DNA from: Bacteroidales bacterium
GTDB taxonomy: Bacteria; Bacteroidota; Bacteroidia; Bacteroidales; F082
Assembly (NCBI GenBank): GCA_023229135.1
Contig: JALNZT010000006.1
Coordinates: 1,996-65,995, forward strand
Length of the DNA: 64,000 nucleotides
Reading direction: 5' to 3'
The notes under the pieces were generated by a model that worked only from the letters and a program-made list of their open reading frames with translations, was not told the origin of the DNA and made no database searches. Made by a program: the position numbers and the translations under genes. Each line of letters begins with the position of its first letter. Positions within the stretch are counted from its first letter, which is position 1. Below are positions 7,358 to 30,285 of the stretch, in pieces.

Positions 7358-7448
7358 TTTTTTTAAGTTTAGTGGTTTGTAAATATGGTAAGTAACGAAG
7401 AACGCCATCTCAATAAAATATAACATCATTGAGACGGCCCACCTCGGC

Positions 7449-8082: not shown

Positions 8083-9381
8083 TCACGTTTTGTCGAAAAG
8101 AATATGCTTTAATGGTTGTAATACTCTATGAAACAGGCGAATATCGTTTGTGATTATCTCAGCAGTACCTTTCAGGCGTTGTTTGAAAACAAAGGTTTTA
8201 CCATAGCTGGTTTTTAAACCTGCCGGAAAATTTACTGTTGCATAGTAAACTCCCTCGTCAGGTATTTCAGAAATATGCGAGATTACGCCTTCGAGCATGC
8301 CATACTCCATATAAGGATAATTATCCAATCTGATATTTACTTTTTGACCCGGTTCAACTTTGCCGGCTCCTTCGGCTGGTAGCAGTAGCATTCCTTTTAG
8401 CGCTCCATGCGAATCGGGTAATATGGTAAAAACCGTTTCATTAGCATTCAGGTTCTGATTTTTTGCCCAATACTTAGTAAAAACACACTTGCCTGACTGA
8501 GGTGTTCTTAGCACATATTTTTGCTCCCAGATTTCCAATTGCGCCTTCAGATTATTTCCGGCTTCAACAAGTGCTGAATACAAACTTTCGTGTTGTTGTT
8601 TGTCCAGCATTTTAAACTCTGCAATAGTACTTTGCATTTGACTGATCTGTATTTGAATATTAGCCATGTTTGTTCTGATACTTTCAAAAGCCAGTTTTCT
8701 GTTAAGGTATTGGCTTTGGGCTTTTTCAAGTTCCTGCTCCGGAATTACCTGCTCATCAAATAGTTTTACATAGCGTTTATAGTCTTTTGAGGCTAATTCA
8801 AAATCACTTTTCAAGGTTTTAAACTGCTCATTAGTAAAGTCATATAATGTGCGGTAGTCAATTAATTGAAGCTGTGTTGTATTGATTTTGTTATTATAAT
8901 AGTCTATTTCCCTATAACTTTGATAGGCATGCTGTGCCGATGTAAATGCTGAATAATAAACCTGAAGCTCACCCAACTTACCTAAGCTAATAGGAATATC
9001 CCATTTATTCAAGCTATCATTTGCCTGCCATTGGCTACTTAGCGTGTTTAAATGTTTTTTAAGAACTACAATTTCTGAATAATCGGCAGGATTTTCCACC
9101 AGTCCAAGAACTTGATCTTCATGTACTTTCTGATTTTCTATAACAAAAAAAGTATCTATTTTACCACTTACCCTGGCCTTAATCTCAGTCGGTGGAAGGT
9201 TTCCGGTAATTTCAATACTTGCATGTACTACATCAGGATATTTAAAAAACCAACTCGCTGTTATAAATAGCGCAATAATGACAAAAAATACCGAGATGCC
9301 CCAGCTCACAAGACTTCCCGGGGTTTTTCCCAGTATTTCGTCAATTTCGCCTGTGCGTATGTCTGTCAGATTTGCTGGCAT
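8083..9381 (-). CDS. HlyD-family membrane fusion / secretion adaptor protein
   Basis: 432-aa ORF with one N-terminal TM segment (VSWGISVFFVIIALFITASWFF) and a long coiled-coil middle. It lies directly downstream of the C39 ABC exporter. Confidence 0.8.
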   Translation of the reverse strand: MPANLTDIRTGEIDEILGKTPGSLVSWGISVFFVIIALFITASWFFKYPDVVHASIEITGNLPPTEIKARVSGKIDTFFVIENQKVHEDQVLGLVENPADYSEIVVLKKHLNTLSSQWQANDSLNKWDIPISLGKLGELQVYYSAFTSAQHAYQSYREIDYYNNKINTTQLQLIDYRTLYDFTNEQFKTLKSDFELASKDYKRYVKLFDEQVIPEQELEKAQSQYLNRKLAFESIRTNMANIQIQISQMQSTIAEFKMLDKQQHESLYSALVEAGNNLKAQLEIWEQKYVLRTPQSGKCVFTKYWAKNQNLNANETVFTILPDSHGALKGMLLLPAEGAGKVEPGQKVNIRLDNYPYMEYGMLEGVISHISEIPDEGVYYATVNFPAGLKTSYGKTFVFKQRLKGTAEIITNDIRLFHRVLQPLKHILFDKT

Positions 9382-9456: not shown

Positions 9457-11664
9457 TTAGTTTCCAAGTTCTAGTTGATTTTTGACCAGTTTGTAATAGC
9501 TTCCCTTAAGTTTTGTCAATTCCTGGTGCGTGCCTTGTTCGATGATACTACCTTTTTCCAGCACTACAATCTGATCTGCATTTTTAACAGTGCTGAGCCT
9601 GTGGGCAACCACCACAACAGTTCGTCCTTTGAAAAATTCATTCAGGTTTTCCATGATCACTTTTTCGTTGTTGGCATCCAGCGCATTAGTCGCCTCATCA
9701 AAAAAAATAAATTGAGGGTCTTTATAGACTGCCCTGGCAATTAATATACGCTGTTTTTGTCCTTGACTAAGTCCAACTCCTTCCTGACCGATCATGGTAT
9801 TAAAGCCAAGTGGTAGTGTTTCGATATGTTCCAATATATTGGCAACCCGAGAAGCATGTAGTAGCTTACTGAAATCCAACTCGTCTTCGCTGATGCTGAT
9901 GTTGCCGGCAATGGTATCAGAAAAAATAAAGCCATCCTGCATTACAGCACCCACTTTGGAACGCCAGACACTGGCAGAAAGATTATCCACCCGAAATGGG
10001 CCTATACGTATTTCACCCGCCACAGGCTTGTAAAAGCCCAAAAGCAGTTTGAGCAAAGTGGTTTTTCCACTTCCCGATGTGCCTACAATTGCTGTTACTT
10101 TGTTTTGAGGGATTTTGAGGTCTAGCGCGTTAAGTACCAAAGGCGAACGAGGCCCGTCATACTGGTATGAAACGCCACTTAACAAGATGTCCTGTTCTGT
10201 GTCAAGTTCCCTTATTTTTACATTCATCTTATCGGCCGGTTCTTCATCTTCACGCAGGTGTATTTCACCCAATCTTTCAAGACTGATTTTGGCGTCTTGG
10301 GCAGCACGTACAAATCCTATCATTTGGTCAACCGGGGCATTCATCATACCAATGATGTACTGCACGGCCATCATCATACCGAGCGTCATCTCGCCTTTTA
10401 CAACCGCGTAAGCCGCCATAAAGGTGATGAGTATATTTTTTGACTGGTTAAAAAACGTTGCCCCGGCCTGTTGGTACTGGTTGAGTGCTAAGCCTTTTAT
10501 ATTTACGCGAAACAACCTGGCCTGTATTTTTTCCCACTCCCATCGTTTCTGTTTCTCGCAGTTGTTAAGTTTAATCTCCTGCATACCAGTAATCAATTGT
10601 ATCAGGTTACTTTGATTACCGGCCATTTGCGCGAAGCGTTTAAAATCCAATTCGCGGCGTTTTTTCATAAAGACCAGCACCCAAAGGGTATATAAAATGC
10701 TTCCGGCAAGGAAAACGAGTAAGATGCCCACATTATATACGCCAAGCACGATGGCAAATACAGCAAGGTTCACCACGGCAAACAAGATTTGCAAGGAAGA
10801 GGCTGTCAAAAAGCTTTCGATACGGCTATGATCACCAATGCGTTGCATCAGGTCGCCAATCATTTTGCTGTCAAAATAGCCCAGGGGCAGCTTCATCAGC
10901 TTGATCAGGAAATCGCTTATAAGCGAAATGTTGATGCGTGTGCTGATATGTAGCAATATCCAGCTACGAATAAACTCAACGGCTGTCTGGCCAAAAAATA
11001 AAACCAATTGCGCTATCAGCACTAAAGTGATAAAATTGAGATCACGTGTGTTGATACCCACATCTACTACTGCCTGGGTGAGGAATGGAAAGATAAGCTG
11101 TATGATACTGCCCAACAGCATGCCCAATATAAGCTGTACTAAAAGTTTGCGGTGCGGGCGCAAATAGGAGAACAAAAACCGGAAGTTTTTTTTGTTGACT
11201 ATTTCTTCTTCGTTGGTATAGAAATCCGGTGTGGGTTCCAGCAACAGACAAACGCCCATGTCCTCGTCTTCGTTTTTAGTGCTTACCCAGCCTTTTAGGA
11301 ATTCTTCCCTGCTATACGTAATAAGCCCGTGCGCAGGATCGGCTACTTTTACTTTGTCTTTTTTCTTCCCGCTAATCTCATATACCACCACAAAATGCTG
11401 CTGTTTCCAGTGGGCGATGCATGGTAGCGGGACTTCGTTAGCCAGCTTGTCGAAGGTGATTTTTACACCCATAGTTCTGAAACCGATTTTCTCGGCTGCA
11501 TCGCTGATGCCGAGCAAGGAAACCCCTTCACGGTTAATATGACAATACTCCCTTAGCACGGGCAAACTGTGTCGCTTGCCGTAGTGTCTGCTAATCGCAT
11601 CCAGGCAGGCCGGGCCACAGTCGCGGGCGTCGAGTTGGGGGGTGAAATTATATCTCACTTTCAA
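9457..11664 (-). CDS. peptidase C39 domain-containing ABC transporter (double-glycine leader cleavage/export)
   Basis: 735-aa ORF. It has the N-terminal C39 Cys motif PQLDARDCGPACL, six-TM region, Walker A GTSGSGKTTL, ABC signature LSQGQKQRI and Walker B IFFDEATNALD. Confidence 0.93.
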   Translation of the reverse strand: MKVRYNFTPQLDARDCGPACLDAISRHYGKRHSLPVLREYCHINREGVSLLGISDAAEKIGFRTMGVKITFDKLANEVPLPCIAHWKQQHFVVVYEISGKKKDKVKVADPAHGLITYSREEFLKGWVSTKNEDEDMGVCLLLEPTPDFYTNEEEIVNKKNFRFLFSYLRPHRKLLVQLILGMLLGSIIQLIFPFLTQAVVDVGINTRDLNFITLVLIAQLVLFFGQTAVEFIRSWILLHISTRINISLISDFLIKLMKLPLGYFDSKMIGDLMQRIGDHSRIESFLTASSLQILFAVVNLAVFAIVLGVYNVGILLVFLAGSILYTLWVLVFMKKRRELDFKRFAQMAGNQSNLIQLITGMQEIKLNNCEKQKRWEWEKIQARLFRVNIKGLALNQYQQAGATFFNQSKNILITFMAAYAVVKGEMTLGMMMAVQYIIGMMNAPVDQMIGFVRAAQDAKISLERLGEIHLREDEEPADKMNVKIRELDTEQDILLSGVSYQYDGPRSPLVLNALDLKIPQNKVTAIVGTSGSGKTTLLKLLLGFYKPVAGEIRIGPFRVDNLSASVWRSKVGAVMQDGFIFSDTIAGNISISEDELDFSKLLHASRVANILEHIETLPLGFNTMIGQEGVGLSQGQKQRILIARAVYKDPQFIFFDEATNALDANNEKVIMENLNEFFKGRTVVVVAHRLSTVKNADQIVVLEKGSIIEQGTHQELTKLKGSYYKLVKNQLELGN

Positions 11665-14476: not shown

Positions 14477-14492
14477 AAATTATCTATTATCG

Positions 14493-15752: not shown

Positions 15753-15785
15753 ATTTATAATTCATTAAGAATAACACCAAATAGA

Positions 15786-15820
15786 AGTTAAAATCCTGTC
15801 TAAATAGCAGGATTTTAACT
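15786..15820 (-). terminator. hairpin immediately after a precursor gene
   Basis: agttaaaatcctg (15786-15798) pairs with caggattttaact (15808-15820). On the minus strand it is followed by ttctatttggtgttattc. Confidence 0.55.
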
Positions 15821-15832
15821 CCTAATCAATAG

Positions 15833-16030
15833 TTAATATTCAAGATTATTCTTTGGGCCAGTTATTCCTGCACTTTGCCGGTTTGACTGTGTTTGGTCAT
15901 GAATTGAGCCCGGATCACCGCAATCGCAACTGCAACTGCAAGCTGGTGTAGAACCTCCACCACCCTGATCTCCACCTTTAATGTGGTTTAATGAATCTTG
16001 GGTCATTTTGATTAATTTTAGATTTTTCAT
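15833..16030 (-). CDS. RiPP precursor peptide with a double-glycine leader and CxCxCxC core
   Basis: MKNLKLIKMTQDSLNHIKGG | DQGGGGSTPACSCSCDCGDPGSIHDQTQSNRQSAGITGPKNNLEY. It lies next to rSAM, C39-ABC and HlyD genes. Confidence 0.85.
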   Translation of the reverse strand: MKNLKLIKMTQDSLNHIKGGDQGGGGSTPACSCSCDCGDPGSIHDQTQSNRQSAGITGPKNNLEY

Positions 16031-16111
16031 ACTTTGAATTGTTAAATTGTTAATAATCGTGATAAACTATAAATAAATTGTAAAGCCGAACATAAAAAGT
16101 CAGGCATAAGC

Positions 16112-17371: not shown

Positions 17372-17402
17372 ATTTATAATTGATTAATAGTAATACCAAA
17401 TA

Positions 17403-17441
17403 GGAGTTAAAATCCTATATAAAGAGTAGGATTTTAACTCC
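17403..17441 (-). terminator. hairpin immediately after a precursor gene
   Basis: ggagttaaaatccta (17403-17417) pairs with taggattttaactcc (17427-17441). It is followed on the minus strand by a T-rich stretch. Confidence 0.55.
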
Positions 17442-17451
17442 TTTTCAATAG

Positions 17452-17649
17452 TTAATACGCAAAATTATTCCTAGAGCCAGTTATTCCTGCACTTTGCCGG
17501 TTTGAATATGTTTGCTGATATGTAGTGTCGCCAGAACCACAATCACAACTGCAACTGCAAACTGGTGTCGAACCTCCACCTCCCTGTTCTCCACCTTTAA
17601 TATGACCTAATGAATTTTGGGTCATTTTGATTAATTTTAGATTTTTCAT
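17452..17649 (-). CDS. RiPP precursor peptide with a double-glycine leader and CxCxCxC core
   Basis: MKNLKLIKMTQNSLGHIKGG | EQGGGGSTPVCSCSCDCGSGDTTYQQTYSNRQSAGITGSRNNFAY. Confidence 0.85.
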   Translation of the reverse strand: MKNLKLIKMTQNSLGHIKGGEQGGGGSTPVCSCSCDCGSGDTTYQQTYSNRQSAGITGSRNNFAY

Positions 17650-17735
17650 ACTTTGAATTGTTAGACTGTAAATAATTGTGAGTAGTTAAAAGTGAATTGT
17701 GAAGCCGTCCTTAAAAGAAAGACGGCACAATTCAA

Positions 17736-18270
17736 TCGAACTTATTCTTCCCCAACCAGAAAATATATTTTGTCGTGCAACAAGGCACAAATTGTTTATC
17801 AAATAAAAGTGCGTGGGATAATTCATGACAACAGTCTGCATTAAAGCTATCTAGCCGGGCTATACCACCATACCTTACTTTTGCGGGGGGGGGGTAGGAT
17901 AGCAGAGCAAGCTAATCAGCTGCGTACGCTTTAAAGCACACGGCTTGAGGATTGCGTTTAGAAAAGACCTAAAAAAACGGATAGTTTTCATAAGCTGGTT
18001 TTGAGGCTTCAAGTATAAGTACAATAAACATAAAGCGCAACTTTTTTTTGCGATTTTGCAATAAAAAAAACAAATATTTTTTATGTTACTGAAATTCAAT
18101 TGAATAAAACTGTTTTTTAAGCTTGATAAATTCTAAAAGGTGGCTGAGAGAGCTTATATTAACTAAATGCGCTGGAAAAAATGGGAGCAAAACTTATGCT
18201 TTACAACTGAACATCAATGGCAAAAGAGACGGATTTAGGGGGGCACGGATTGCAAATCCGCGCCAGCGGG
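17736..18270 (-). repeat. promoter/leader module copy B (heads the complete rSAM operon)
   Basis: It aligns with copies A, D and E. It has a G10 run at 17885-17894, and its upstream end abuts a truncated gene at 18270/18271. Confidence 0.9.
18010..18040 (-). promoter_or_regulatory. Bacteroidota-type promoter in module B (TTG-20 nt-TATACTTG)
   Basis: Same sequence context as module A, about 355 nt upstream of the precursor ATG at 17649. Confidence 0.45.
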
Positions 18271-18841
18271 GAGAAATCTTATTTCCATACAATTGAACTT
18301 TTCTAAGACCTGGTAAAGCTTCATCTCTAAAAAAACGCAAAACCAAGTCACTATTTTTATACTGAGCCTCATTTAGGTTTGTGATTGGAGCATTGATTTG
18401 TTTATTACCCGACGTATTAAATGCTGAATCAGTTATGTTTGTTAAGGAATCTCCATGATATATAAACAACTCATGAAATGTATTTCTAAGGTTCATTGTT
18501 CGCCAGGTTCTTTCATCATTGAGATGTTCAAAATCAAAATTGAGTTTAGGGGCAAAAGGCATGATCACCGGCCGATAATCGCTTTCGATTATATCACCAT
18601 AATAATATTCCCTACATATTTCTATGAATTCCCTGATCTCACTATTAACCAATTCAAATTCACTTAATAGAGCAATTCTGTTAACATCATCATCGAGTAA
18701 TCTTTTTGCAAAACCAACGGATTCTTTATTTCTAAATAGGTAAAGAGAAGTTTTGTGACTTAAGGTATTATATAATAGAATATGGTTATCAATCAAGTCA
18801 GCATGAACAAATGGTTCGATATAGAAGTAGTTGTTAGGCAT
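18271..18841 (-). pseudogene. 3'-truncated pseudo-rSAM gene (only the first ~190 codons remain)
   Basis: From MPNNYFYIEPFVHADL.. to ..LRKVQLYGNKIS it is colinear with 11716-12996. It then reads into leader module B (PRWRGFAIRAP..). Its start overlaps the rSAM stop as ATGCCTAA. Confidence 0.85.
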
Positions 18842-20318
18842 AACGTGTTTTTCTCCAAATTTCTGAATACAATTCTGGCAAAGCCTCAAAAAAAGAATAA
18901 TAGTCGTTTAAAAGTCCCTTGTGACTTTCGTTATTAAGGAAAGAACATTTCAATGATTGCTCATCATTTAGCATGTTTAGAAACAAACATTCTTTACATA
19001 AATTGACTCGATAACAACTATTACATCTACCTTTCAGTTTCTCAAAATAGCCATTGTACATTTTGACTATCACTTTTGGTTCCAAATTTACAGTTCCACC
19101 TTGAACGTTTCCAAGGGCATATTGATGAGAAATAGCTTCGCATGGAAGTATTTTGCCTTTTGCTGTTACAAACATTCTTTTGCTAAAAGGGTTGCATGTT
19201 CCGGTTGGAAGGGAGTTCGAAATGGCATTGAAATTATACAAATCGTCTATCGCTGCAAAATGATTATTTGAATAGTTACGCAAAAACATATTATAGCTTA
19301 ATGACTCGCCCGAAGACAGAAAACATCTTTTGTGCCCAGATTTCCTAAAATCATAACTATGTCCATCATAATTGAAATTGTTTCCTGTCAACAAAGGGTT
19401 AACTTCAGATCCTTGAATAGATTTGTTAAACTCTCTCCATGCAAATTGCTGTGTTGATATATAATCATTCCTATCATGCAGAACTGCATTAAATAGCACA
19501 TTACGTTCAAAATAATCAGGATGCTTTTCCTTTACCAAACGTAAGTTCTTAAAAACTATGTCAAAAGATTCTTTTCCATTCGGAAAAAGCCTGTAACTAT
19601 TTGCAAAAGCCTCACCATCCAGGCTAATAGTGAGAGCGAAGTTGTTGTTTGAAATGAAATCGATGTATTTGTTTAGCAAAACACCGTTTGTTGTCATATT
19701 AAATCTAAACGTTAAACCGGTATTTTTGCTTACTTGGTTAATATACAAAACAAACGCTTCAATAAAACTAAAGTTCAACAAAGGCTCACCGCCAAAAAAA
19801 CCTATAAAAATTTCCTTTTCAGGATTTTTATTTAACTTACTAAGCCATTTTGGAATAAGATAATCAACTATCGCTCTGGCATCTAAAATATTCAAATCAA
19901 GATTCATCCGCGAATCATGTGTGTTATAACTATCTCCATAGAAACAATATTTACATTGTAGATTACATCTTTCTGTGATTTCAAATACAATTGCCCGTAG
20001 GTTTGACAGTTCGTACTCAATATCAGATTCTTTCAGGCGACCACCAATTATTTGTTCATTATCAATGTTTTCAAAAAATCCGTGTTCCCGAAGAAATTCG
20101 TATTTCTTTTTGTAATATACCAACTTATCATTTTTGTTTTGATTTACTAAGTTGGCTGTTTCTTTTTTATCTACCAATTGATTTTCATTGTTTTGCATTT
20201 TGAGTTTTTGATCGTGTGTCAAACTACTCATTAAGGGATGAAAATTAATCGAATACTTTTTATTAAAGCTAAATAGATAGTTATTGTATTTAGTTGAAAA
20301 GGTAGTGTAATCAGGCAT
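18834..20318 (-). CDS. radical SAM/SPASM domain peptide maturase (second copy)
   Basis: 494-aa ORF with ITERCNLQCKYCFYG, GTCNPFSKRMFVTAKGKILPCEA and CNSCYRVNLCKEC. It is colinear with 12989-14476. Confidence 0.9.
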   Translation of the reverse strand: MPDYTTFSTKYNNYLFSFNKKYSINFHPLMSSLTHDQKLKMQNNENQLVDKKETANLVNQNKNDKLVYYKKKYEFLREHGFFENIDNEQIIGGRLKESDIEYELSNLRAIVFEITERCNLQCKYCFYGDSYNTHDSRMNLDLNILDARAIVDYLIPKWLSKLNKNPEKEIFIGFFGGEPLLNFSFIEAFVLYINQVSKNTGLTFRFNMTTNGVLLNKYIDFISNNNFALTISLDGEAFANSYRLFPNGKESFDIVFKNLRLVKEKHPDYFERNVLFNAVLHDRNDYISTQQFAWREFNKSIQGSEVNPLLTGNNFNYDGHSYDFRKSGHKRCFLSSGESLSYNMFLRNYSNNHFAAIDDLYNFNAISNSLPTGTCNPFSKRMFVTAKGKILPCEAISHQYALGNVQGGTVNLEPKVIVKMYNGYFEKLKGRCNSCYRVNLCKECLFLNMLNDEQSLKCSFLNNESHKGLLNDYYSFFEALPELYSEIWRKTRYA

Positions 20319-20332
20319 CCTATAGCTGGTGT

Positions 20333-21583
20333 TTAGTAATTCGTATTTATAAAATTTCTCAAATATGTATTCATATCAGCTCGCTTTATCTTCAATACTT
20401 CTTCAATACAGTTGTAGAATTGATCCTCGTTATCAGCTTTGCAGAGAAATAGTTCTTTTACTTTTTCGTACCCACCATCTTTAAATGCAATTTCGCATAA
20501 AACAGCATGGATCATATACTGGAAATTATAGCTTGACTCTAAATCCCTAAACTGTAAAATTTCTTCATTCTCTTTCTTTAGCATCTCATCTTCAAGATTA
20601 TTAATACTTACCTTTGAATGACCAAAAAAGCTCTGAGACAAATCAATCCATACATTTTGGTCTAAGAATGTTTTAAAACGTGGCATATGCTCTTTATATG
20701 TATAACCAACATGCTCACCAAAATATGTAGCAACACCTTCCTCGAATAAAGCATATTTCCCTCTTTCATAGTTGCTTAATAAAATATGAATTATCTCGTG
20801 AAAGTAGTTCTCTCCACCGCCTCCAATGTAAACCATGTTATTTAAAACCGTGTAACCTCCTTGAATGGTGTTTGAAACACTACCATAGTCGAAATAATTG
20901 TAATCAACACCAAACAATTGTGAAATATCGGTCGTCCTATGTGATAAAACATAGTTGATAGGTTTTGAGCATTGGAGGTTAAAACCCTTTTTAAACTGCT
21001 CAATTTTCAAGCCTAATAAAGCTGTAAGACTATCATTCAATATATATTCCATTGGATAATAATATTTTATGCTATTAGGTAATTCTGTTTTTACAATACT
21101 AGAATGATGATTGAAGGCATTTTCAAGTTGGAGTCCATTCTCTGTCTTTCTAACATATATGGTTAAAAATGCCGAGGGGAACCCTCTAAATGGGGATTCC
21201 TCTGATGTTTTGAACATCGTTTTAATTTGGTACAGGTCATCTCTCCGATTGGTTATGCCTAGAAAATATTCAGTATCGTTTGTATACCATACATTTCCTT
21301 TAGACCGAAAATACGCATAGTACAGATCGGGGAAGTCAAACATAGAATTATCTTTTTCAGACCAATAGACTTTTAATTGCTCTGGCATATCATCTAGGAG
21401 GGCACCATTTTTAAGGTTTACAACATTTAATTCATCCATATAACTTTTCCAAAACTTAAAAACCTCCTTAAATTGTGGAGGTATCGTATCAGCAAAAGGA
21501 TAGATTTCAATATTTCTTTGTATTTGACCAAAAGAGATATGAAATGAATAGAAAAGGAATAGAAATAGAAGTGTTTTTTTCAT
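20333..21583 (-). CDS. secreted HExxH (gluzincin-like) putative zinc metallopeptidase, paralogue 3 (more divergent)
   Basis: 416-aa ORF with signal-like MKKTLLFLFLFYSFHISFG, the motif FHEIIHILL...LFEEGVATYFGE and a conserved C-terminal block GGYEKVKELFLCKADNEDQFYNCIEEVLKIKRAD. Confidence 0.6.
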   Translation of the reverse strand: MKKTLLFLFLFYSFHISFGQIQRNIEIYPFADTIPPQFKEVFKFWKSYMDELNVVNLKNGALLDDMPEQLKVYWSEKDNSMFDFPDLYYAYFRSKGNVWYTNDTEYFLGITNRRDDLYQIKTMFKTSEESPFRGFPSAFLTIYVRKTENGLQLENAFNHHSSIVKTELPNSIKYYYPMEYILNDSLTALLGLKIEQFKKGFNLQCSKPINYVLSHRTTDISQLFGVDYNYFDYGSVSNTIQGGYTVLNNMVYIGGGGENYFHEIIHILLSNYERGKYALFEEGVATYFGEHVGYTYKEHMPRFKTFLDQNVWIDLSQSFFGHSKVSINNLEDEMLKKENEEILQFRDLESSYNFQYMIHAVLCEIAFKDGGYEKVKELFLCKADNEDQFYNCIEEVLKIKRADMNTYLRNFINTNY

Positions 21584-21643
21584 TTTTGAATTACCCTTAA
21601 TACCTTTATTAATAAATAATTAAGAAATGTTAAAACTAAAAGA

Positions 21644-21712
21644 TTAAGGCTGTATATTATAATTCAAATTCATACTGTTGATGAAAATAGTGAGCATAAG
21701 ATACAGCCTTAA
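21644..21712 (-). terminator. 12-bp stem hairpin (large loop) after the third precursor gene
   Basis: ttaaggctgtat (21644-21655) pairs with atacagccttaa (21701-21712). Confidence 0.35.
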
Positions 21713-21722
21713 ACTAAGTCAA

Positions 21723-21926
21723 TTATGTTGGATTAGCTATTGACTTCATTGTTGAGTGATTAGTTGCACTTGTGGTTGTTGACCTATTCATATTATATGT
21801 TGTATCTTCACCACTACAACTACATGTACAGCTACAAGCTGGGGTTGTACCACCTCCGCCTTCTTCACCACCTTTGATTTGACTTAATGCATTCTGAGAC
21901 AAATTGATTAATTTTAAGTTTTTCAT
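21723..21926 (-). CDS. RiPP precursor peptide with a double-glycine leader and CxCxCxC core (divergent tail)
   Basis: MKNLKLINLSQNALSQIKGG | EEGGGGTTPACSCTCSCSGEDTTYNMNRSTTTSATNHSTMKSIANPT. Confidence 0.8.
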   Translation of the reverse strand: MKNLKLINLSQNALSQIKGGEEGGGGTTPACSCTCSCSGEDTTYNMNRSTTTSATNHSTMKSIANPT

Positions 21927-22007
21927 CGTTTGAAAAGTTTAATTGGAAATAATAATAACTAGAAAATGAGGGTACGCCGTCAATTAATTAATGACGGCAA
22001 TCATCGA

Positions 22008-22090
22008 TCGAACTTATTCTTCCCCAGCCAAAAGATATATTTTGTTGTGCAACACCGCACAAACTGTTTGCGAAATAAAAGGGTGTGAGC
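22008..22090 (-). repeat. partial promoter/leader module copy C (only the precursor-proximal ~80 nt conserved)
   Basis: tcgaacttattcttccccagccaaaagatatattttgttgtgcaaca..aaataaaag matches the low-coordinate end of copies A, B, D and E. The sequence from 22090 to about 22345 is unique and contains a G6 run at 22159-22164. Confidence 0.75.
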
Positions 22091-22440
22091 CTGATCGTGC
22101 ATGCAAGCAACAAGCTGCCGGATGATGCCTGTAAGACTCTTCCACTCGGTATTTATTAGGGGGGTTAATGGCTTGTATATCATAATTATATAAAGATTTG
22201 GTCATACAAACAACCAAGCATGCAAACAATTTGTTTGGGGCAGATAAACTTGGTGGGTAGGTGCTGGCTGATCTCATGGCTTTGTTTTCGGCTTTAAAAC
22301 TAAAAACAACATTTTTAGAAAGCAAATATTTTTTTGCATGATGTTTCTTTTCTTAATGGAGCAAATTTCTTAATCCGGCTGTTTATAGGGCATTGCAATG
22401 CTATTTAAAATGGATATAAATTGAGAAGTAATGTTTTCAG

Positions 22441-22681
22441 CCATACAGGGCAGCGGCACTTCGTTAGCCAGCTTGTCGAAGGTGATTTTTACACCCATAG
22501 TTCTGAAACCGATTTTCTCGGCTGCATCGCTGATGCCGAGCAAGGAAACCCCTTCACGGTTGATATGACAATAATCCCTTAGCTTGGGCAGGCTGTGTTG
22601 CTTGCCATGATGCCTGGCAATCGCATGCAGGCAGGCAGGGCCACAGTCGCGGGCGTCGAGTTGGGGGGTGAAGGGGAACAT
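22441..22681 (-). pseudogene. 5' fragment of a C39-peptidase ABC transporter gene (~80 codons)
   Basis: MFPFTPQLDARDCGPACLHAIARHHGK..KITFDKLANEVPLPC matches the N-terminus of 9457-11664. The DNA is near-identical by eye to 11425-11664, and the similarity stops abruptly near 22441. Confidence 0.85.
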
Positions 22682-22819: not shown

Positions 22820-23770
22820 TCATTGATTAAGTTCTTTTTCATATAATAAATTTGCAATGTATTCATCAATTTCAGGATAACAATGTTCATATATCTCATC
22901 ATATTGCCCACATGGATTAAAATCTATAAACCAAAGTAATCCTGATTTGTCAACCAGTAGATCAATTACCGCAAAATTCGTCTGTAATAATTTGCAAAGG
23001 TTAAAAATGGACTGTTGTACTTCCTCACTTAATTTAGTTCTTTCATAGAATTCGCCGCTATTGGATTGATGACGGGAATCAACATGCCCCCTTATTTTAT
23101 GACTGTATTTTACGGCGAAAATTTTACGCTCCACGCACAGTAGTCTGATTTCTTGATCAAAATCAACTGCCTCTTGAAAAAAAGAATTGCCAAAATAATT
23201 CTTCAATTTGGAAACTTCGTATTCTTCAATAAATGTATGATACAAACTATTCTCTGAATCCATGAACAGAACATCACTAAATGGTTTACAGACAAACTTA
23301 TTGATTCCTGTTTCTATCAAGACTGATTTTTTATATGTGACATACGATTTAGGAATGCGTAAGGCTACAGATTTTGCTGCTAATAAAACTTCTAATTTAC
23401 CAATATTATGTATATTAGGATTACCTATGCAATAATGCCTTTTCAAAATAACTTTGGAAAGAAATACTTCCAAAGCTTTTTTTTCCTCAGCAATGAAATC
23501 TATAAAGCTTAGGTTTTTATCATCATTTATAAAAAGATACGAACCAAAGTTGCCACGTCTAAACCAAAAAACATCCTTTGAATCAATTTTTCTTTCAACT
23601 CCATCATAATAAATGTTTATGCCGGTCTGATTCAACATATCTAAGTTAAAGCTAAATCCCAAATAGTTTTCATCAAGATTTACTCTTAACACGCTAGTAT
23701 TGCATTTACGCAGGACATCAATTACTCTACTTGTTGGCTCATCATTAGCCTCAGTTAAAATAAATATCAT
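22820..23770 (-). CDS. ATP-grasp peptide maturase-like protein (MvdC/MvdD-type architecture)
   Basis: 316-aa ORF. The N-terminus MIFILTEANDEPTSRVIDVL resembles microviridin-type ATP-grasp ligases. The C-terminal FAVIDLLVDKSGLLWFIDFNPCGQYD resembles the ATP-grasp Mg-binding E/D-x-N-P-x-G region. Confidence 0.6.
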   Translation of the reverse strand: MIFILTEANDEPTSRVIDVLRKCNTSVLRVNLDENYLGFSFNLDMLNQTGINIYYDGVERKIDSKDVFWFRRGNFGSYLFINDDKNLSFIDFIAEEKKALEVFLSKVILKRHYCIGNPNIHNIGKLEVLLAAKSVALRIPKSYVTYKKSVLIETGINKFVCKPFSDVLFMDSENSLYHTFIEEYEVSKLKNYFGNSFFQEAVDFDQEIRLLCVERKIFAVKYSHKIRGHVDSRHQSNSGEFYERTKLSEEVQQSIFNLCKLLQTNFAVIDLLVDKSGLLWFIDFNPCGQYDEIYEHCYPEIDEYIANLLYEKELNQ

Positions 23771-24471
23771 CGTATATCTATAAGTTCTAGTCTGGTTGTT
23801 ATACCATTAATCTCATTTTCAATAAGAACAAAACCATAATCTTTGTTAAATAAAAATACTGAGTACCCTGTGCCCAACTTTGATTGTGAAACAGCAGTAA
23901 CTTTACGGCACGCAATTTTTATCCCTTGATAAATTATAATGGAATCACCAACAATCTTATATCTTGATATTATCTTTGTTTTTTTTGGTATGTTCCATCC
24001 TTCAAAAGCTGTTAAAGTTTGTTTCCATTTAAAATTGATATTCTTTCTTAATCTAATCTCAGGAAATGGGAGTAGTTGATGAATTTCATTTTCATTTGCT
24101 CTGGGCGGGTGTATTTCATAAGATTTCTTATTTTCAGTAGCAAGAGTCTCCTCCCATGTATAGTCTATTTTTTTATTTAGAGAATCTAAGCTTAAGAAAT
24201 ATGTGTATCTGACCAGAGTTTGATTAAACTTTGGTTCGGGCTGTACTGTCAGCAAAATGAAAAACTTACGAATTATGCCTGAAGAATCAGCATAAACTTC
24301 TTCATACAAATATTGTTTTCCAGGGTTTAAGATCCTGTTATCATCGTTTGGGTTATTTCTTGCTGAGAAGCAAAATGAATTCAGACTTAACACACATGCT
24401 AAACACAACAAGATGTTAATAAGCAAGCGGTTATGACTACCGCTTGCCTTGAAAAACCTATTCGTTAACAT
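23767..24471 (-). CDS. hypothetical secreted/membrane-anchored protein in the ATP-grasp cassette
   Basis: 234-aa ORF with the hydrophobic N-terminus LLINILLCLACVLSLNSFCFS. Its stop overlaps the ATP-grasp start (ATGA). I recognise no motif. Confidence 0.6.
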   Translation of the reverse strand: MLTNRFFKASGSHNRLLINILLCLACVLSLNSFCFSARNNPNDDNRILNPGKQYLYEEVYADSSGIIRKFFILLTVQPEPKFNQTLVRYTYFLSLDSLNKKIDYTWEETLATENKKSYEIHPPRANENEIHQLLPFPEIRLRKNINFKWKQTLTAFEGWNIPKKTKIISRYKIVGDSIIIYQGIKIACRKVTAVSQSKLGTGYSVFLFNKDYGFVLIENEINGITTRLELIDIR

Positions 24472-24473
24472 TT

Positions 24474-24683
24474 TTAGTTTGCATTGATTTTAATTACTAT
24501 GCCTAAAATTTTACGATCGGTACGTTGAATATTGTTATGCATATAGTATGTTTTCTTCCCAAAGATACCATCAACTTGTATATCCTCGTCTGTCTCAATA
24601 TAATCTGTAATTATATCGCTTTCAGAAGTGCCTCCAATAACATTATCCATATCTGTTTTGTCAATGAAAATTACTTTTTTCAT
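24474..24683 (-). CDS. candidate RiPP precursor with a GG leader and Thr/Ser/Asp/Glu/Lys-rich core
   Basis: MKKVIFIDKTDMDNVIGG | TSESDIITDYIETDEDIQVDGIFGKKTYYMHNNIQRTDRKILGIVIKINAN. It is the first gene after leader module D and lies two genes upstream of the ATP-grasp enzyme. Confidence 0.6.
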   Translation of the reverse strand: MKKVIFIDKTDMDNVIGGTSESDIITDYIETDEDIQVDGIFGKKTYYMHNNIQRTDRKILGIVIKINAN

Positions 24684-24792
24684 AAAATAATATATTAATT
24701 TAGTTGATTAAAACCTAAAATTCTCCAACGGTATAAATCTATCCGTGAATAAAGCCGTCCATCCAATGGTTTTGGTAGACGGCCCACCTCGG

Positions 24793-25358
24793 TCGAACTT
24801 ATTCTTCCCCAACCAATCCCGAAAGCTTTCGGGAATATTTCGTCGTGCAATAAGGCACAAATTGTCTATCAAATAAAAGTATGTAGTAAAGCTCATGACA
24901 ACAAGCTCCATTAAAGGCGGCTAACCGGGCTAAACCACCATAGTCTTGCTTTTGCGGGGGGGGGGGTAAAGCCATGTTGTTCATGATAACACAACAAGCT
25001 TATCAAACGTGTACACTTTATAGTACACAACTTAAAGATTGCGGTTAGAAAAGACCTAAAAAAACGGATAGTTTTCATAAGCTGGTTTTGAGGCTTCAAA
25101 TATAAGTACAATAAACATAAAGCGCAACTTTTTTTTACGATTTTGCAATAAAAAAACAAATATTTTTTATATTACTGAAAATCAACTGAATAAAACTGTT
25201 TTTTAAGCTTGATAAATTGCCAAATGCGGCTGAGAGAGCTTAGATTAACTAAATATGCTGGAAAAAATGGGAGCAAAACTTATGCTTTACAACTGATTAT
25301 CAATGGCAAAAGAGAAGGATTTAGGGGGGCACGGATTGCAAATCCGCGCCAGCGGGTG
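24793..25358 (-). repeat. promoter/leader module copy D (heads the ATP-grasp cassette)
   Basis: It aligns with copies A, B and E and has a G11 run at 24956-24966. It carries an extra small hairpin insertion cccgaaagctttcggg at 24818-24833. Confidence 0.9.
25097..25127 (-). promoter_or_regulatory. Bacteroidota-type promoter in module D (TTG-20 nt-TATATTTG, perfect TAnnTTTG)
   Basis: The minus strand reads gTTGcgctttatgtttattgtactTATATTTGaagcc. Confidence 0.5.
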
Positions 25359-25517: not shown

Positions 25518-25829
25518 TTATTTTTTTGAAATAGTTATAATTTTTATTTGGCTGAATTTGTTATCTTGCCAATTACAAGTCCATTTAGCATCTAATAATT
25601 CATATTCAACATTTACAATTAAACCATCTACTGAAAATTCAGATTCTAATTCAATAGGTTTATACATAGTATCTTTTATCAATAAAAAGTATCCGCACCC
25701 ATCCATTGCAGGATTTCCCTCGAATAATATCGTGGCCTTATCCTTTAATGTTGTGATGTTATTTTTATCGCAACTACTTAGTAGTAATAGGGTTATTAAA
25801 AAAAAACATGTTAACTTTATATACTTCAT
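25518..25829 (-). CDS. small lipoprotein, unknown function
   Basis: 103-aa ORF with the lipobox LLLLSSCDKNN. Confidence 0.65.
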   Translation of the reverse strand: MKYIKLTCFFLITLLLLSSCDKNNITTLKDKATILFEGNPAMDGCGYFLLIKDTMYKPIELESEFSVDGLIVNVEYELLDAKWTCNWQDNKFSQIKIITISKK

Positions 25830-25970
25830 GATTTCAGGGTTTTAGTTAATAATATGACTAACCTTCAGAAGGCCGTTTATAGCATCTTGTATTACAATTT
25901 CATTTAATTATTTTTTCTTGAAAGAAAATTGTGATAGGAATAATTATCAATATTGTCAAAAATAGATTTT

Positions 25971-26381
25971 TCATTTTTCTTCGATTTTAGTTAAAATTAA
26001 ACGATTATAAGTATAATCAGCGGGTGCAAATGTTTTTTGACAAGTTTCCGTAACATATCCGGAAAATTTCACTTGTATAATTTCTCCTGATACTAATTTT
26101 GATTTTAGTGTATCAGACAAAAAATCTTCATTACATAATATATAGGCATGTACACAATTAATACAATTAGGCACTGTATAACCAAACCAAAATTTATTGT
26201 TATAGAAATCGTCCAAGCTATCCAATTGTATTTTATAACTCAAACTTCCATATAGTGGTTCAGCATCAGGAATTGTATATTGTATTATGCCATTGCAACC
26301 GCATTCATCTTTTTTATTTGTTTCTTTTTTGCAAGCAACAAATAACGTAAATAGTGTAATTAATAATAATAGTTTTTTCAT
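25971..26381 (-). CDS. small Cys-rich lipoprotein, unknown function
   Basis: 136-aa ORF with the lipobox LFTLFVACKKE and several Cys pairs (ECGCNG, PNCINCV). Confidence 0.65.
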   Translation of the reverse strand: MKKLLLLITLFTLFVACKKETNKKDECGCNGIIQYTIPDAEPLYGSLSYKIQLDSLDDFYNNKFWFGYTVPNCINCVHAYILCNEDFLSDTLKSKLVSGEIIQVKFSGYVTETCQKTFAPADYTYNRLILTKIEEK

Positions 26382-26655: not shown

Positions 26656-26806
26656 GCTATTTATTGTTAAATTATTAAATTCTATAACGGGTTCATTATG
26701 ACTGATTTATGCGTAAAAAACGATTTTGACAATGAGAACCCAAAACCTTATAATATAAAAACATGTTTCGCCGCTACTTTATTCTATATAGTTGCGGCTA
26801 ACTCGA

Positions 26807-27299
26807 TCGAACTTATTCTTCCCCAACCAGAAAATATATTTTGTCGTGCAATAGGACACAAATTGTCTATTGTATAAAAGTGTACAGTAAAGCTCATGAC
26901 AACAATCAGCATTAAAGGCCGCTAAGTGGGCTAAACCACCACACCTTACTTTTTCGGGGGGGGGGGGTAGGATAGCAGAGCGAGCTAATCAGCTGCGTAT
27001 GCTTTAAAGCGCACAGCTTGAAGATTGCGGTTAGAAAAGACCTAAAAAAACGGATGGTTTTCATAAGTTGGTTTTGAGGCTTCAAATATAAGTACAATAA
27101 ACATAAAGCGCAACATTTTTTTTTACGATTTTGCAATAAAAAACAAATATTTTTTATGTTACTGAAAATCAACTGAATAAAACTGTTGTTTAAGCTTGAT
27201 AAATTCTAAAAGGTGGCTGAGAGAGCTTAGATTAACTAAATATGCTGGAAAAAATGGGAGCAAAACTCCAGGTTTACAACTAATTCTCTATTTCAAAAA
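26807..27299 (-). repeat. promoter/leader module copy E (heads the lipoprotein cassette)
   Basis: It aligns with copies A, B and D and has a G11 run at 26956-26966. Its upstream end joins a DUF4835-gene fragment at 27300 instead of the hairpin end of the other copies. Confidence 0.9.
27083..27113 (-). promoter_or_regulatory. Bacteroidota-type promoter in module E (TTG-20 nt-TATATTTG)
   Basis: Same context as module D. Confidence 0.5.
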
Positions 27300-27440
27300 A
27301 GACGAAATCATTTATATTTTCTCACAAGGAAGCCCGCAGGAAAAAACCAAAGTGGATAATGAGGCTCGCCAGTCAGGGCGCAACAAATTGGATTCGCCTC
27401 AGAGTCGCACCCTTACTCTTCACCCTGACTCTTAAAAAGC
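27300..27440. repeat. direct repeat 1 flanking the FtsX permease gene (begins with a copy of DUF4835 nt 4500-4559)
   Basis: gacgaaatcatttatattttctcacaaggaagcccgcaggaaaaaaccaaagtggataat is colinear with 4500-4559. It then continues gaggctcgccagtcagggcgcaac..., which is shared with 30162-30285. Confidence 0.85.
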
Positions 27441-27485: not shown

Positions 27486-29876
27486 TTATTTATTTCCTTT
27501 CAAATGTTTTATTGGACTGGTATTTAGTGTTTTGCTCAGCACGAAATAGCAAATCAATACTATAAAAGCTAGCATGCTGGTCGAAATAGCAAAGAGTACA
27601 AGATAGGAATAGGGAAGTGCTTGGTCAAACATTTCGTTAAACCTTGAAGTCAGCTCACCGGAAAATGGTATGGAAAAAACTATTACAATCGATATCATCA
27701 GCACGAAGTATTTTGAAAAATCTTTTATAATTATAGTATCAGGAGCGCCATAAACCCGTTTTACGGAAATATTGTATTGGTTTTCGTTCAAGAAGTATAA
27801 GGTTATACCTGTCAAACCAATTAACGCAATAGCTGAGATTATAACTGTAAAGAACAATATGAAGTTACGAAGTCCGATATCCTTTTCATACAAGCTATCA
27901 AGTGCTTCATTGAATGTGTTGCTACTAAACAACCTATTTGGCAAAACCTTTGAAATAATATCGTGTATGGCTTGTGTTTTTTCGGGAGAAACCTCATGAT
28001 GGAACCGAATCGCCATTTGCCGCGTTGTCATTTCGTTTGGATAAAAAATCATTGGCGATATCTGTTTATGCAGGCTGTGAAAACGGAAATTTTCAACAAC
28101 ACCCAGCACAGGCAAACCAGCAATTCGCTCCTCAAGTGGATTAGCAAATCCAAAAACATTGGCTGCTTTCCTGTTGATAAAAAGACCATGCGTTAAGGCC
28201 ATATTATCTGACAAATACAGCGAATCACCATCAACAAAAAGGCCATAAGTTTCAAAAAAGTCGTTGTTCACACGGTATATTTCGCATACCACTGATTTTG
28301 TTCTGTCATTATCAGGTTTTAAATCCTTTTGTGCGGAAGCATTCGAAGGTGGAAGTAGGATTCCACCTGTAACAGCTTTAACCATACCATAGTCTAATAG
28401 ATTCGATTTCAATTTGTTGTAGTCCTTTCTGCTGATATTTGAATCAAAGTATATATTGAGAATATTAGCTGTTTTATGGGTTGAATGCACGGATAAACCG
28501 TAATTCAATTGACGGTAAATATGGATTGAAAAAGTGAGCAGAACAAGGGAAACGAAAAATTGCACCCCTACAATAACATAAATACCAAACTTTCTGCCGA
28601 CTTGCTGCTTACTTTTTCTATGAATGGCTTCAATAGGTTTTAGGGCAGAAACATAAACACTTAAATAAACGGTAGAAATTGCAATTATTACAAACAACAA
28701 TATGCCAAGCCAAATAAAATACTCCCAAAGTTTATTCGTATGTACGATCACTTGTGGAAGCAGATATCCATCCAGAAAATTTTGATATAAAGCGTAATAC
28801 AATACAATAAATGGCGTTGTGAAAACTGCCAGAATCAAGGCTTCAGCAAAAAGCTGTCTAGCCAAACTTATATGGCTGGCACCAAAAACCTTACGAATGC
28901 CTATTTCGAGATGACGTTTTGCTGTAAGATTGGTTTGCAGCAATATGTAATTGAACGAAGTAAGTAACAAAAGCACCAAAATTGAAACGCGGTAATATTT
29001 TAAACTAAGGATATCCCCTTTTTCAATAAAATCATTTTTCACATTAGCCGAATAGTGAAATATATCTTCAAAACGCTGAAGCAGAAGGCTGTTTTCCGGT
29101 CGCGTATTTTTATAGGCATCTTTTGTTAAGCGGCTAAATGAGGTAACAAATTCTATTTCGCTAATATTTCGTTCTCTTTTGAGTAAAAAACACACATTAT
29201 CATCCGATAAAGAGTTTAGAAGATTATCCCGGTCGTAGCCATATTCATATACTAAGATGTCTTGGTGAAAGCTTAAATCACAAACAAAACCCGGTCGGTA
29301 GGTATTGTTCCACACGATATCCTCAAAAACACCTGAAACAATAAAGTCATGTCGCTTGTCCTTTAGCTTCATTGTAAACACTTTTCCAATAATATCTGAA
29401 GTGCCAAAATACTTATGCGCATTAGACTTCGAGAGTAATATATTTCCTGGTATTAGTTTTAAAGTTTCAGAACCAAATAAATTTTTAAAATTTAGTAATT
29501 TCATAAAATTGCTGTCAGCTGCATATACTTCCTCTTCAACCATCCCGACATCATCAATCATGCCATACATTTGGCCAATATTATTGGGTAGTTTTACGAA
29601 TCGTGAGTAGGCTGAAAAGTGCGGTGATTGCTTCAAGGCCATTTCAAAAAGGGGGTAAGGTACGGCAGGCTGTTTGAATCCGCTTTCATACCTGCTTATA
29701 ATCCGGTAGAGCAATTCGCTGTTTTCGATGTTTTTATTGTAGCTCATTTCGTTGATAAGCTTGAGCGATAGGGTGAAAATACCGAACAGGCCAAGGCTTA
29801 AGCCGAGAAGTGCAAGCAATGCGATAACTTTATTCCTGAAATAAAAGTTAAAGAAAGTTTTAATTAGGCCATTCAT
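27486..29876 (-). CDS. FtsX/MacB-like ABC transporter permease (two FtsX-type TM bundles)
   Basis: 796-aa ORF with an N-terminal TM, a large extracytoplasmic domain and a TM cluster, the whole arrangement repeated twice. This is the typical ~800-aa Bacteroidota ABC transporter permease. No ATPase gene is adjacent. Confidence 0.75.
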   Translation of the reverse strand: MNGLIKTFFNFYFRNKVIALLALLGLSLGLFGIFTLSLKLINEMSYNKNIENSELLYRIISRYESGFKQPAVPYPLFEMALKQSPHFSAYSRFVKLPNNIGQMYGMIDDVGMVEEEVYAADSNFMKLLNFKNLFGSETLKLIPGNILLSKSNAHKYFGTSDIIGKVFTMKLKDKRHDFIVSGVFEDIVWNNTYRPGFVCDLSFHQDILVYEYGYDRDNLLNSLSDDNVCFLLKRERNISEIEFVTSFSRLTKDAYKNTRPENSLLLQRFEDIFHYSANVKNDFIEKGDILSLKYYRVSILVLLLLTSFNYILLQTNLTAKRHLEIGIRKVFGASHISLARQLFAEALILAVFTTPFIVLYYALYQNFLDGYLLPQVIVHTNKLWEYFIWLGILLFVIIAISTVYLSVYVSALKPIEAIHRKSKQQVGRKFGIYVIVGVQFFVSLVLLTFSIHIYRQLNYGLSVHSTHKTANILNIYFDSNISRKDYNKLKSNLLDYGMVKAVTGGILLPPSNASAQKDLKPDNDRTKSVVCEIYRVNNDFFETYGLFVDGDSLYLSDNMALTHGLFINRKAANVFGFANPLEERIAGLPVLGVVENFRFHSLHKQISPMIFYPNEMTTRQMAIRFHHEVSPEKTQAIHDIISKVLPNRLFSSNTFNEALDSLYEKDIGLRNFILFFTVIISAIALIGLTGITLYFLNENQYNISVKRVYGAPDTIIIKDFSKYFVLMISIVIVFSIPFSGELTSRFNEMFDQALPYSYLVLFAISTSMLAFIVLICYFVLSKTLNTSPIKHLKGNK

Positions 29877-30161
29877 TTTGAAAAGGTATTTAGTATTCTA
29901 TTATACAAATTGAACTTTTCCGATACCATTATGGGGCAAGATGAATTTTTAACTCGAAGCTGGTACTGTAATATAATGATTGGCTGTTTCATAGCATGTT
30001 AATTAAAGTACGATATTACAAAATTATCTTTTCAAAAGCAAGCAACGAATTAGGTTCGTATTTTAAAAAATAGAGGAATATTATGTAAAAGGCTCAATAA
30101 ATTGCTATTGCTCCTTGTTTAAGATGTGTTTAATTGACTTTCAAGGGTAGGCGACGAAATC

Positions 30162-30285
30162 ATTTATATTTTCTCACAAACAAGCCCGTAGAAAAAAACC
30201 AAAGTGGTGAATGAGGCTCGCCAGTCAGGCCGCAACTAATCCGGAAACGATAAAATTCGCACCCTGACTTCAAAGCAATAAATAT
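30162..30285. repeat. direct repeat 2 flanking the FtsX permease gene
   Basis: gacgaaatcatttatattttctcacaaacaagcccgtagaaaaaaaccaaagtggtgaatgaggctcgccagtcaggccgcaac... is colinear with 27300-27440 apart from a ~24-nt internal deletion. Confidence 0.85.

Follow-up and report, generated by a model that had tools for sequence, protein, structure and literature searches.

A probable graspetide-type cassette with an exported partner protein in a multi-cassette peptide island of an uncultured Bacteroidales

What does a run of three 'hypothetical' genes in a Bacteroidales genome make? The window, as the whole stretch of DNA analysed here is called, covers 64,000 nt (positions 1,996 to 65,995 of contig JALNZT010000006.1, assembly GCA_023229135.1, a Bacteroidales bacterium of the GTDB lineage F082). 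It contains a cassette that encodes a small peptide with a double-glycine leader, an exported protein of 234 amino acids (aa) and an ATP-grasp ligase, and the public database entries identical to all three proteins are labelled 'hypothetical protein'. A first-pass annotation had described this combination from the sequence, and all of its elements were found, on the minus strand. The cassette is probably a compact operon for a graspetide-type peptide that is made on the ribosome and post-translationally modified (RiPP), located in a multi-cassette peptide island of an uncultured Bacteroidales. The ligase is predicted to be a graspetide synthetase, which would form macrolactones or macrolactams.

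The cassette and the exporter relic behind it lie entirely on the minus strand (open reading frame (ORF) calling over the 64-kb window). The precursor ORF (24683..24474) encodes 69 aa, beginning with MKKVIFIDKTDMDNVIGG and continuing with TSESDIITDYIETDEDIQVDGIFGKKTYY.... The middle ORF (24471..23767, 234 aa, predicted to be exported) starts 2 nt past the precursor stop, and the ATG of the ATP-grasp ORF (23770..22820, 316 aa) overlaps the stop of the middle gene as ATGA (4 nt). A 138-nt spacer then separates the ligase gene from the relic of a C39-type exporter gene (22681..22370, 103 aa). On the upstream side the cassette is headed by leader module D (24721..25356), a ~570-nt repeat. There are three genes only between module D and the relic, as is also the case in the related loci L001-L026 (recovered loci carry L numbers and protein sequences P numbers). 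All three cassette ORFs are full length when compared with their homologues. A terminator scan, uninformative here, predicted no minus-strand terminator within the cassette.

The three-gene unit is real and conserved. In the loci of ligases 65-69% identical to that of the window, a 67-69-aa peptide, a ~230-aa protein and a 316-aa ligase are encoded with order and spacing kept. The loci of two more diverged ligases, P0030 (45% identical to the window ligase) and P0031 (34%), have the three genes in the same arrangement, with a full exporter behind them. The most distant clade (P0006, P0007) has no middle gene; a recognisably related peptide is kept, and in L011 it is adjacent to the ligase. The peptide gene of the window, compared with five homologues, has a ratio of nonsynonymous to synonymous substitution rates (dN/dS) of 0.05-0.10, with synonymous sites saturated, and is therefore under strong purifying selection. 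Since the order of peptide, ~230-aa protein and 316-aa ligase recurs in every related locus and the peptide shows this dN/dS, the cassette ORFs are not chance.

The coupling between precursor and ligase is tight. A profile search with the peptide found 13 homologue clusters only; every one with a recoverable context occurs together with a ligase, and none of the 13 was found without one. The precursor accompanies the ligase in L001-L008, L011, L012-L016, L023, L025/L027 and L026. In L024 only the C-terminal end of the precursor was recovered, with the ligase, and in L009 the precursor is located 4 kb from the ligase, downstream and past the exporter. Every recovered locus of the 9 ligase clusters has both genes. 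The small ORF might have been absent from homologous loci, a doubt raised in the first-pass annotation; it is present with the ligase in all of them.

The precursor has an MKK-type double-glycine leader (residues 1-18, 24683-24630) and a core of ~51 residues (19-69), and it contains no Cys. In an alignment of 12 sequences from three clades, the positions invariant across all clades are G17, G18, T26, Y28, E30, T31, E33, D38, K44, T45, R54, D56, I64 and N67; swapping P0189 in for the L023 peptide makes position 38 variable. The first-pass annotation had described a core with Thr/Ser, Asp/Glu and Lys, the residue classes used in such cross-links. The core invariants agree with this: they include four potential nucleophiles (T26, T31, K44, T45) and four acids (E30, E33, D38, D56). 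This 4 + 4 set persists although the ligases diverge to 34-45% identity. The dN of the core (0.10-0.14) is lower than that of the leader (0.19-0.26), so the core is under tighter constraint.

The microviridin TxKYPSD-type core motif and the PFFARFL-type leader motif are both missing from the peptide sequence, the former as already stated at first reading. No precursor matching the core was found in the searched parts of the supplements of Makarova et al. 2022 (PMC8939145) and Carter et al. 2026 (PMC13097080), nor in the papers searched, so the description of the core as unrecognised is borne out to that extent. A search of these supplements and papers for motif strings taken from each of the three cassette proteins likewise found none; the Carter table was covered partly, and absence from it is not conclusive. 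Predicted precursors of Lewinella persica (cluster2540, ...TxYxGEDG...TTRKRVIYIN) resemble the peptide by eye only. The peptide profile gives no score for them, and the likeness was not accepted as a sign of homology. Separately, a peptide variant from a Logan assembly (P0188) has changes at several residues that are invariant elsewhere (E30Q, E33K, D38N, T55A and R57C together), and is either a decaying copy or a sequence error.

The ligase was scanned against NCBIfam. The best match is grasp-with-SPASM (TIGR04192: 114 bits, 8.5e-33), followed by TIGR04187 (SAV_5884; 76 bits), MvdC (62 bits) and MvdD (60 bits). Checking the RiPP ATP-grasp families, as first suggested, thus gave four maturase models (TIGR04192, TIGR04187, TIGR04185 and TIGR04184) that all match over the full length with e-values of 8.5e-33 to 1.5e-16. 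The housekeeping alternative, clustering with RimK/GshB-type ligases, did not hold up. RimK (TIGR00768) reaches 22 bits, where the cutoff is 143, and its match is confined to residues 189-297 in the C-terminal half. An MvdC/MvdD-like N-terminus had been expected and corresponds to the MvdD pre-ATP-grasp domain (PF21068, Pfam) at residues 1-104; the C-terminal motif ...FIDFNPCGQYD is also present. Among solved structures CdnC (7mgv) is the best relative (2e-7, residues 3-312) and MdnC (5ig9) matches too; the relevant PDB matches are limited to CdnC, MdnC, AMdnB and MdnB. When this clade is aligned with bona fide grasp-with-SPASM ligases, K162, E207, D270, N285 and Q289 do not vary, and R209 and R233 hardly do.

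Judged by profile scores, the ligase forms a tiny clade sharply set off from the grasp-with-SPASM enzymes. Only 7 ligase clusters were found among 5.8 billion proteins. In an exhaustive profile search (1.84 billion representatives) the scores run 525, 378 and 254 bits and then drop to 156. The ligases under this drop are TIGR04192-type, and those tested score 161-345 bits on that model; the clade members P0030 and P0031 score 88-90 bits. Among 185,579 GTDB species genomes only two loci were detected, one of them on a partial contig binned as Acidaminococcaceae, with no new taxa. This 8-kb contig (JBFWIF010000099.1, L028) carries the 3' end of a ligase with 68% identity. The sizes and order of its ORFs are the same as in the grasp-with-SPASM cassette of L005, and its assignment is probably a binning error, or possibly the result of a transfer.

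How the peptide would leave the cell is suggested by the exporter genes. The relic behind the ligase matches Peptidase_C39 (PF03412, 2.8e-19, residues 2-82). Its DNA (22440-22672) is 91% identical to 11414-11646, the 5' end of an intact exporter gene of the same island. The relic consists of the N-terminal 78 residues followed by unrelated sequence, the likeness stopping after ...EVPLPC and before the HW...HF segment. The C39 fragment first placed at 22441-22681 is present and slightly longer than stated. It is not the only exporter sequence in the island: an intact C39 peptidase-ABC exporter (peptidase-containing ATP-binding transporter, PCAT) lies 11 kb downstream of the cassette in the same orientation (9457..11664, minus strand, 735 aa; Peptidase_C39 + ABC_membrane + ABC_tran). 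It is the single intact exporter of the island and is presumed to be the leader-cleaving exporter for this precursor. G17-G18 are invariant and an exporter is found in the locus, and cleavage is predicted on these grounds. The adjacent gene (8083..9381, minus strand, 432 aa) has weak, sub-threshold Pfam matches only (OEP, Biotin_lipoyl_2), and the gene after the exporter in L001 has weak precomputed Pfam matches to HH_CzcB and Beta-barrel_AprE. From its position and these weak matches, the 432-aa gene may encode an HlyD-type membrane-fusion partner.

In L015, L023 and L024 a full C39-ABC exporter gene lies 134-138 nt past the ligase, and the ancestral unit therefore comprised peptide, exported protein, ligase and exporter. 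In the window, L001, L005 and L025 the exporter is reduced to a relic, with the next cassette after it. Many cassettes are followed by relics of exporter 5' ends, which were also found at L005:2693-2947 and 9086-9367, L012:6043-6282, L001:9138-9920 and L025:10969-11382. The relic arrangement is common elsewhere (L001, L005, L025), which suggests that cassettes normally share one exporter. Several relics break near the same point (...EVPLPC), right after a stretch that is near-identical between islands. The pattern points to recombination of exporter 5' ends with the head element described next as the way in which cassettes become stacked or swapped.

Module D is one of five copies of a repeat in the window, so the leader module noted at first reading is real. 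Its repeat unit is located at 24790-25356, with further copies at 7432-7997, 17720-18270 and 26791-27343 and a partial copy at 21992-22165. The 3' ~170 nt of the leader modules, here called the head element, comprise, in this order, a conserved promoter-like box, GGGGAAGAATAAGTTCGA and a hairpin. The box is near-invariant (...TTTGTGCGGTGTTGCACAACAAAATATATCTTTTGGCTGGGGAAGAATAAGTTCGA...). In the window the head elements occupy 24721-24890 (module D), 21936-22105, 17664-17833, 7376-7545 and 26735-26904, all on the minus strand. They were also located in L001 (6910-7079, 10157-10326) and L005 (3280-3449, 6884-7053, 9666-9835). The element stands 5' of precursor genes in L001, L005, L012, L016, L021 and L025, and in several Bacteroidales islands it fronts chemically unrelated RiPP precursors. 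When each copy was folded, the hairpin paired in 15 of 15 despite different stem sequences (-12 to -20 kcal/mol). An Rfam scan of the whole window found no family at threshold, and the leader modules therefore correspond to no known RNA. The head looks like a Bacteroidetes-type promoter with a structured 5' leader or attenuator.

The 234-aa middle protein is the most unusual component. An N-terminal signal sequence was found in every homologue of the alignment. In the window clade it has a Cys after the hydrophobic stretch, and in distant homologues a classic ...ALA/Q site. The motifs WEETLA, HPPR, LPFPE and I-N-IN are invariant. There are twenty-two homologue clusters. The first-pass annotation had recognised no motif in this protein, and it has indeed no Pfam, NCBIfam or PDB sequence match (a profile search of the PDB included); a Pfam scan over all 16 homologues found nothing either. 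The AlphaFold2 (AF2) model is beta-rich with a predicted local distance difference test score (pLDDT) of 70.5, falling below 50 in the conserved WEETLA...HPPR region. The top Foldseek matches are 3fzx and 2in5 (YmcC/LolA-like half-barrels; E-values 1e-4 to 1e-3), with TM-scores of only 0.34-0.41.

Homologues of the middle protein also occur outside the cassette. In L029 one is encoded directly 5' of a different, diverged ligase (hhalign probability 98.5%, E 2.5e-15), with a small ORF and then a SPASM-type protein downstream. Orphan homologues (~50% identical) without peptide and without ligase are present in L017-L022. One orphan type adjoins a secreted M14 peptidase, and another lies behind a helix-turn-helix gene that heads other peptide islands. 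Orphan copies without peptide and ligase are a pattern typical of immunity genes. As the protein is exported, embedded in the operon and has orphan copies, an immunity or binding role most likely fits it best, a carrier role being the other function named. A role in post-export, extracytoplasmic maturation appears less likely.

In the distant ligase clade the partner is different. Here the ligase pairs with a secreted protein containing tetratricopeptide repeats (TPR) (L009:2578-3468, L005:12336-13238). Since it stands in place of the HPPR/LPFPE-motif protein, the accessory was swapped during the evolution of the ligase family. Pfam detects DUF6624 in the L005 protein only; the L009 protein has weak TPR matches only and, because of a DQ..R-like motif, is taken to be of the 'cluster 23' type (DUF6624-like). 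'Cluster 23' was also considered as the identity of the 234-aa protein itself, as a lipoprotein with conserved His/Arg residues (Makarova et al. 2022), and was rejected, because cluster 23 is an unrelated DQ..R-motif family. Its published alignment has the DQ..R motif and a sequence unlike that of the 234-aa protein, and hhalign gave a 0.3% probability between the 234-aa protein and the TPR-containing L009 protein, taken as the cluster 23 type. We infer that cluster 23 equals DUF6624, which Pfam detects in a separate gene of L005.

If these components work together, the following route can be proposed. The ligase would use ATP to activate side-chain carboxylates of the core, with E30, E33, D38 and D56 as candidates, and join them to side-chain hydroxyls or amines, with T26, T31, T45 and K44 as candidates. 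Up to four omega-ester or omega-amide macrocycles could result. The modified precursor would then be exported by the intact C39-ABC transporter (11664-9457) with the help of the product of the neighbouring 432-aa gene, this shared exporter cutting the leader after the double glycine (G18). The cassette's own exporter would have been truncated as cassettes stacked. Outside the cytoplasm, the exported 234-aa protein would bind the mature peptide, serving in producer immunity or as a carrier.

Several findings weigh against a graspetide operon that is active in this genome. The ligase is below every curated cutoff (230-475 bits). It reaches 114 bits against 230 on TIGR04192, and 62 and 60 bits against 425 and 475 on MvdC and MvdD, and is not a microviridin ligase by these models. 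Scores this far under the cutoffs explain the 'hypothetical' annotation. In the ...E-x-N... motif, Asp (D283, FIDFN) takes the place of the usual Glu. The leader is short, without the PFFARFL-type microviridin helix and with no known recognition helix. By graspetide standards the core is long, and its C-terminus is a conserved hydrophobic strand, RTDRKILGIVIKIN, which may serve in recognition or in structure; the peptide could accordingly fold as a small protein instead of forming a compact macrocycle. With its low confidence (pLDDT 54), the AF2 model of the precursor, which has four predicted beta strands, is too weak for assigning ring partners. The 234-aa protein is missing from the distant ligase clade (L009, L011), so the ligase reaction does not depend on it. 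A 16-nt palindrome, TCCCGAAAGCTTTCGGGA (24817-24834), is inserted in module D between the TATAT-like box and GGGGAAG. The five-copy alignment places it in module D alone, and it may alter expression of the cassette. Given this insert in the promoter-like box and the dead exporter of its own, expression of the cassette in this genome is not assured.

These points can be turned into three other explanations. Scores under all graspetide cutoffs, the E-to-D change in the metal-binding motif and weak RimK, YheC/D and R2K matches would suit a different ATP-grasp chemistry on the peptide, for example the attachment of amino acids, as by RimK, to a carboxylate or to the C-terminus, with no rings formed. 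This is highly improbable, since RimK matches at 22 bits in the C-terminal half only against 60-114 bits for the maturases, the MvdD-type N-terminal pre-ATP-grasp domain is present, and the nearest neighbours in the exhaustive search are all TIGR04192-type. The ~51-residue core with its hydrophobic C-terminal strand and an exported protein encoded directly after it would also be expected of an unmodified double-glycine (class II-like) bacteriocin, for which the 234-aa protein would be the immunity protein and the ATP-grasp enzyme would do some other task, for example self-protection or the modification of a different substrate; exported-protein homologues that exist without ligase fit this as well. 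However, none of the 13 peptide clusters was found without ligase, and the orphan exported proteins lack the peptide too. The invariant core positions are exactly of the Thr/Lys and Asp/Glu classes, and the ligase is a full-length homologue of peptide-acting macrocyclases. A bacteriocin of this kind is accordingly quite unlikely.

The remaining explanation concerns the state of this copy, and it too is on the unlikely side. Within a recombining array, the cassette could be kept as a silent or stored copy, with its sequence intact and no expression or no export. Nothing past ...EVPLPC is left in the C39 relic, the 16-nt palindrome sits in module D only, between the TATAT-like box and GGGGAAG, and there are other border truncations in the island, such as a 231-aa fragment of a SPASM-partner gene (18194-18889). 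Against this, the three ORFs are full length relative to their homologues, an intact exporter in the same orientation is available within the island, and the relic arrangement is common in L001, L005 and L025. A graspetide-type operon thus remains the probable reading of the cassette.

The surroundings of the cassette differ from genome to genome. In L005 it has a lanthipeptide cassette on one side and a true grasp-with-SPASM cassette on the other, in L001 and L012 it precedes a radical-SAM/S41 peptidase cassette, and in L025 it precedes an IS66 element. Cassettes therefore move as units. A broader, joint reading is only tentative and on balance doubtful: that the HPPR/LPFPE-motif protein is a new extracytoplasmic graspetide partner (for dedicated immunity/binding or for maturation after export), repeatedly recruited by different ATP-grasp lineages and kept as orphans by bystander genomes, and that the cassette is at the same time one unit of a recombination-driven RiPP array. 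Each unit would then run from a promoter-leader head with a covarying hairpin to an exporter 5'-end relic, and chemically unrelated peptides would share one exporter and one regulatory input.

Other parts of the island were also examined. Three Cys-rich double-glycine precursors are encoded on the minus strand (21926-21723, 17649-17452 and 16030-15833; cores ...TPACSCTCSCSG...), each followed by a 416-419-aa protein without known family. Two TIGR04148 'GG_samocin_CFB' radical SAM maturases are found on the same strand (20318-18834, 14476-12989). These Cys-rich precursor cassettes (12989-21926, minus strand) are of a known type and have the head element in common. The 231-aa ORF at 18194-18889 (minus strand) corresponds to the N-terminal portion of a protein homologous to the 456-aa SPASM-domain protein encoded at 11716-13086, with 84% DNA identity between 18273-18572 and 12428-12727. 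It runs into the 5' end of leader module B and is a second gene truncated at a cassette border. Behind leader modules E and A come no double-glycine peptides but pairs of small proteins of no known family (25518-26381, 136 + 103 aa, and 6648-7429, 134 + 126 aa, respectively, minus strand), with N-termini that resemble signal sequences or those of lipoproteins. An 88-nt direct repeat (27301-27388 and 30153-30240, 91% identity) flanks the gene of a 796-aa MacB/FtsX-type permease (27486-29876) at the island's upstream edge.

Graspetides are a growing source of protease inhibitors and constrained peptide scaffolds. Mining tools now depend on curated ligase models and known core patterns, and this cassette family escapes all cutoffs. 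It occurs in uncultured Bacteroidales only and is a candidate for a new ring topology, given its long core with 4 + 4 donors and acceptors. The exported partner and its orphans offer a route to studying how Gram-negative bacteria handle peptides outside the cytoplasm. The stacked cassettes show Bacteroidales diversifying their peptide arsenals around a single exporter.

How does the cassette compare with systems already described? LanI-type proteins are lipoprotein or periplasmic immunity proteins of exported peptide antibiotics. The 234-aa protein would resemble them in being exported and operon-encoded here, with orphans in genomes without producer genes. It has no sequence match or confident structural match to any characterised immunity protein.

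Among graspetides, the covered parts of Carter et al. 2026 (PMC13097080) describe 43 groups, some with partner proteins or PCAT neighbours; no sign of this cassette family among the 43 was found in the part of the table covered. According to the same parts, the rosaritide partner and its synthetase form a complex that purifies as one. The cassette is similar to the rosaritide and corallotide systems, as presented there, in having a strictly co-occurring protein of no known family beside the ligase. It differs in that this protein, having a signal sequence, is expected to work outside the cytoplasm, and in that it is missing from the distant ligase clade.

The chryseoviridin and microviridin ligases are like the present enzyme in that CdnC (7mgv), MdnC (5ig9) and MdnB (5ig8) align over nearly the whole ligase, including the ATP-grasp motifs. 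By analogy, ATP-dependent formation of omega-esters or omega-amides on a ribosomal peptide would be shared. The very low scores, the lack of a PFFARFL leader and of a TxKYPSD core, and the single ligase set the cassette apart from these systems.

The closest relative is grasp-with-SPASM (TIGR04192 + TIGR04193), which corresponds to 'branch 5' in the covered parts of Makarova et al. 2022 (PMC8939145), where 'cluster 23' proteins are reported in many graspetide loci, and to 'group 14' in those of Carter et al. 2026 (PMC13097080). Of the ligase families it scores best, and its members are the nearest neighbours in the exhaustive search. Both systems are from Bacteroidota with MKK-type double-glycine leaders and C39-ABC exporters. 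The window ligase, in contrast, is only 25% identical to the grasp-with-SPASM ligase of L005 and scores 114 bits against 230. The cassette has no SPASM protein, LPL-type small protein or DUF6624/'cluster 23' protein. It has instead the exported HPPR/LPFPE-motif protein and a Cys-free precursor unrelated to those tested. Membership in the grasp-with-SPASM, microviridin and RimK/GshB families is thus not supported, whereas every defining feature of the graspetide class that can be examined computationally (ligase, residues, precursor, co-occurrence) is present. On these sequence comparisons the cassette most likely represents a new graspetide family, made up of a new precursor family, a ligase clade below the cutoffs and a new exported accessory protein. 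It adds a new branch to a known natural-product class and introduces no new principle.

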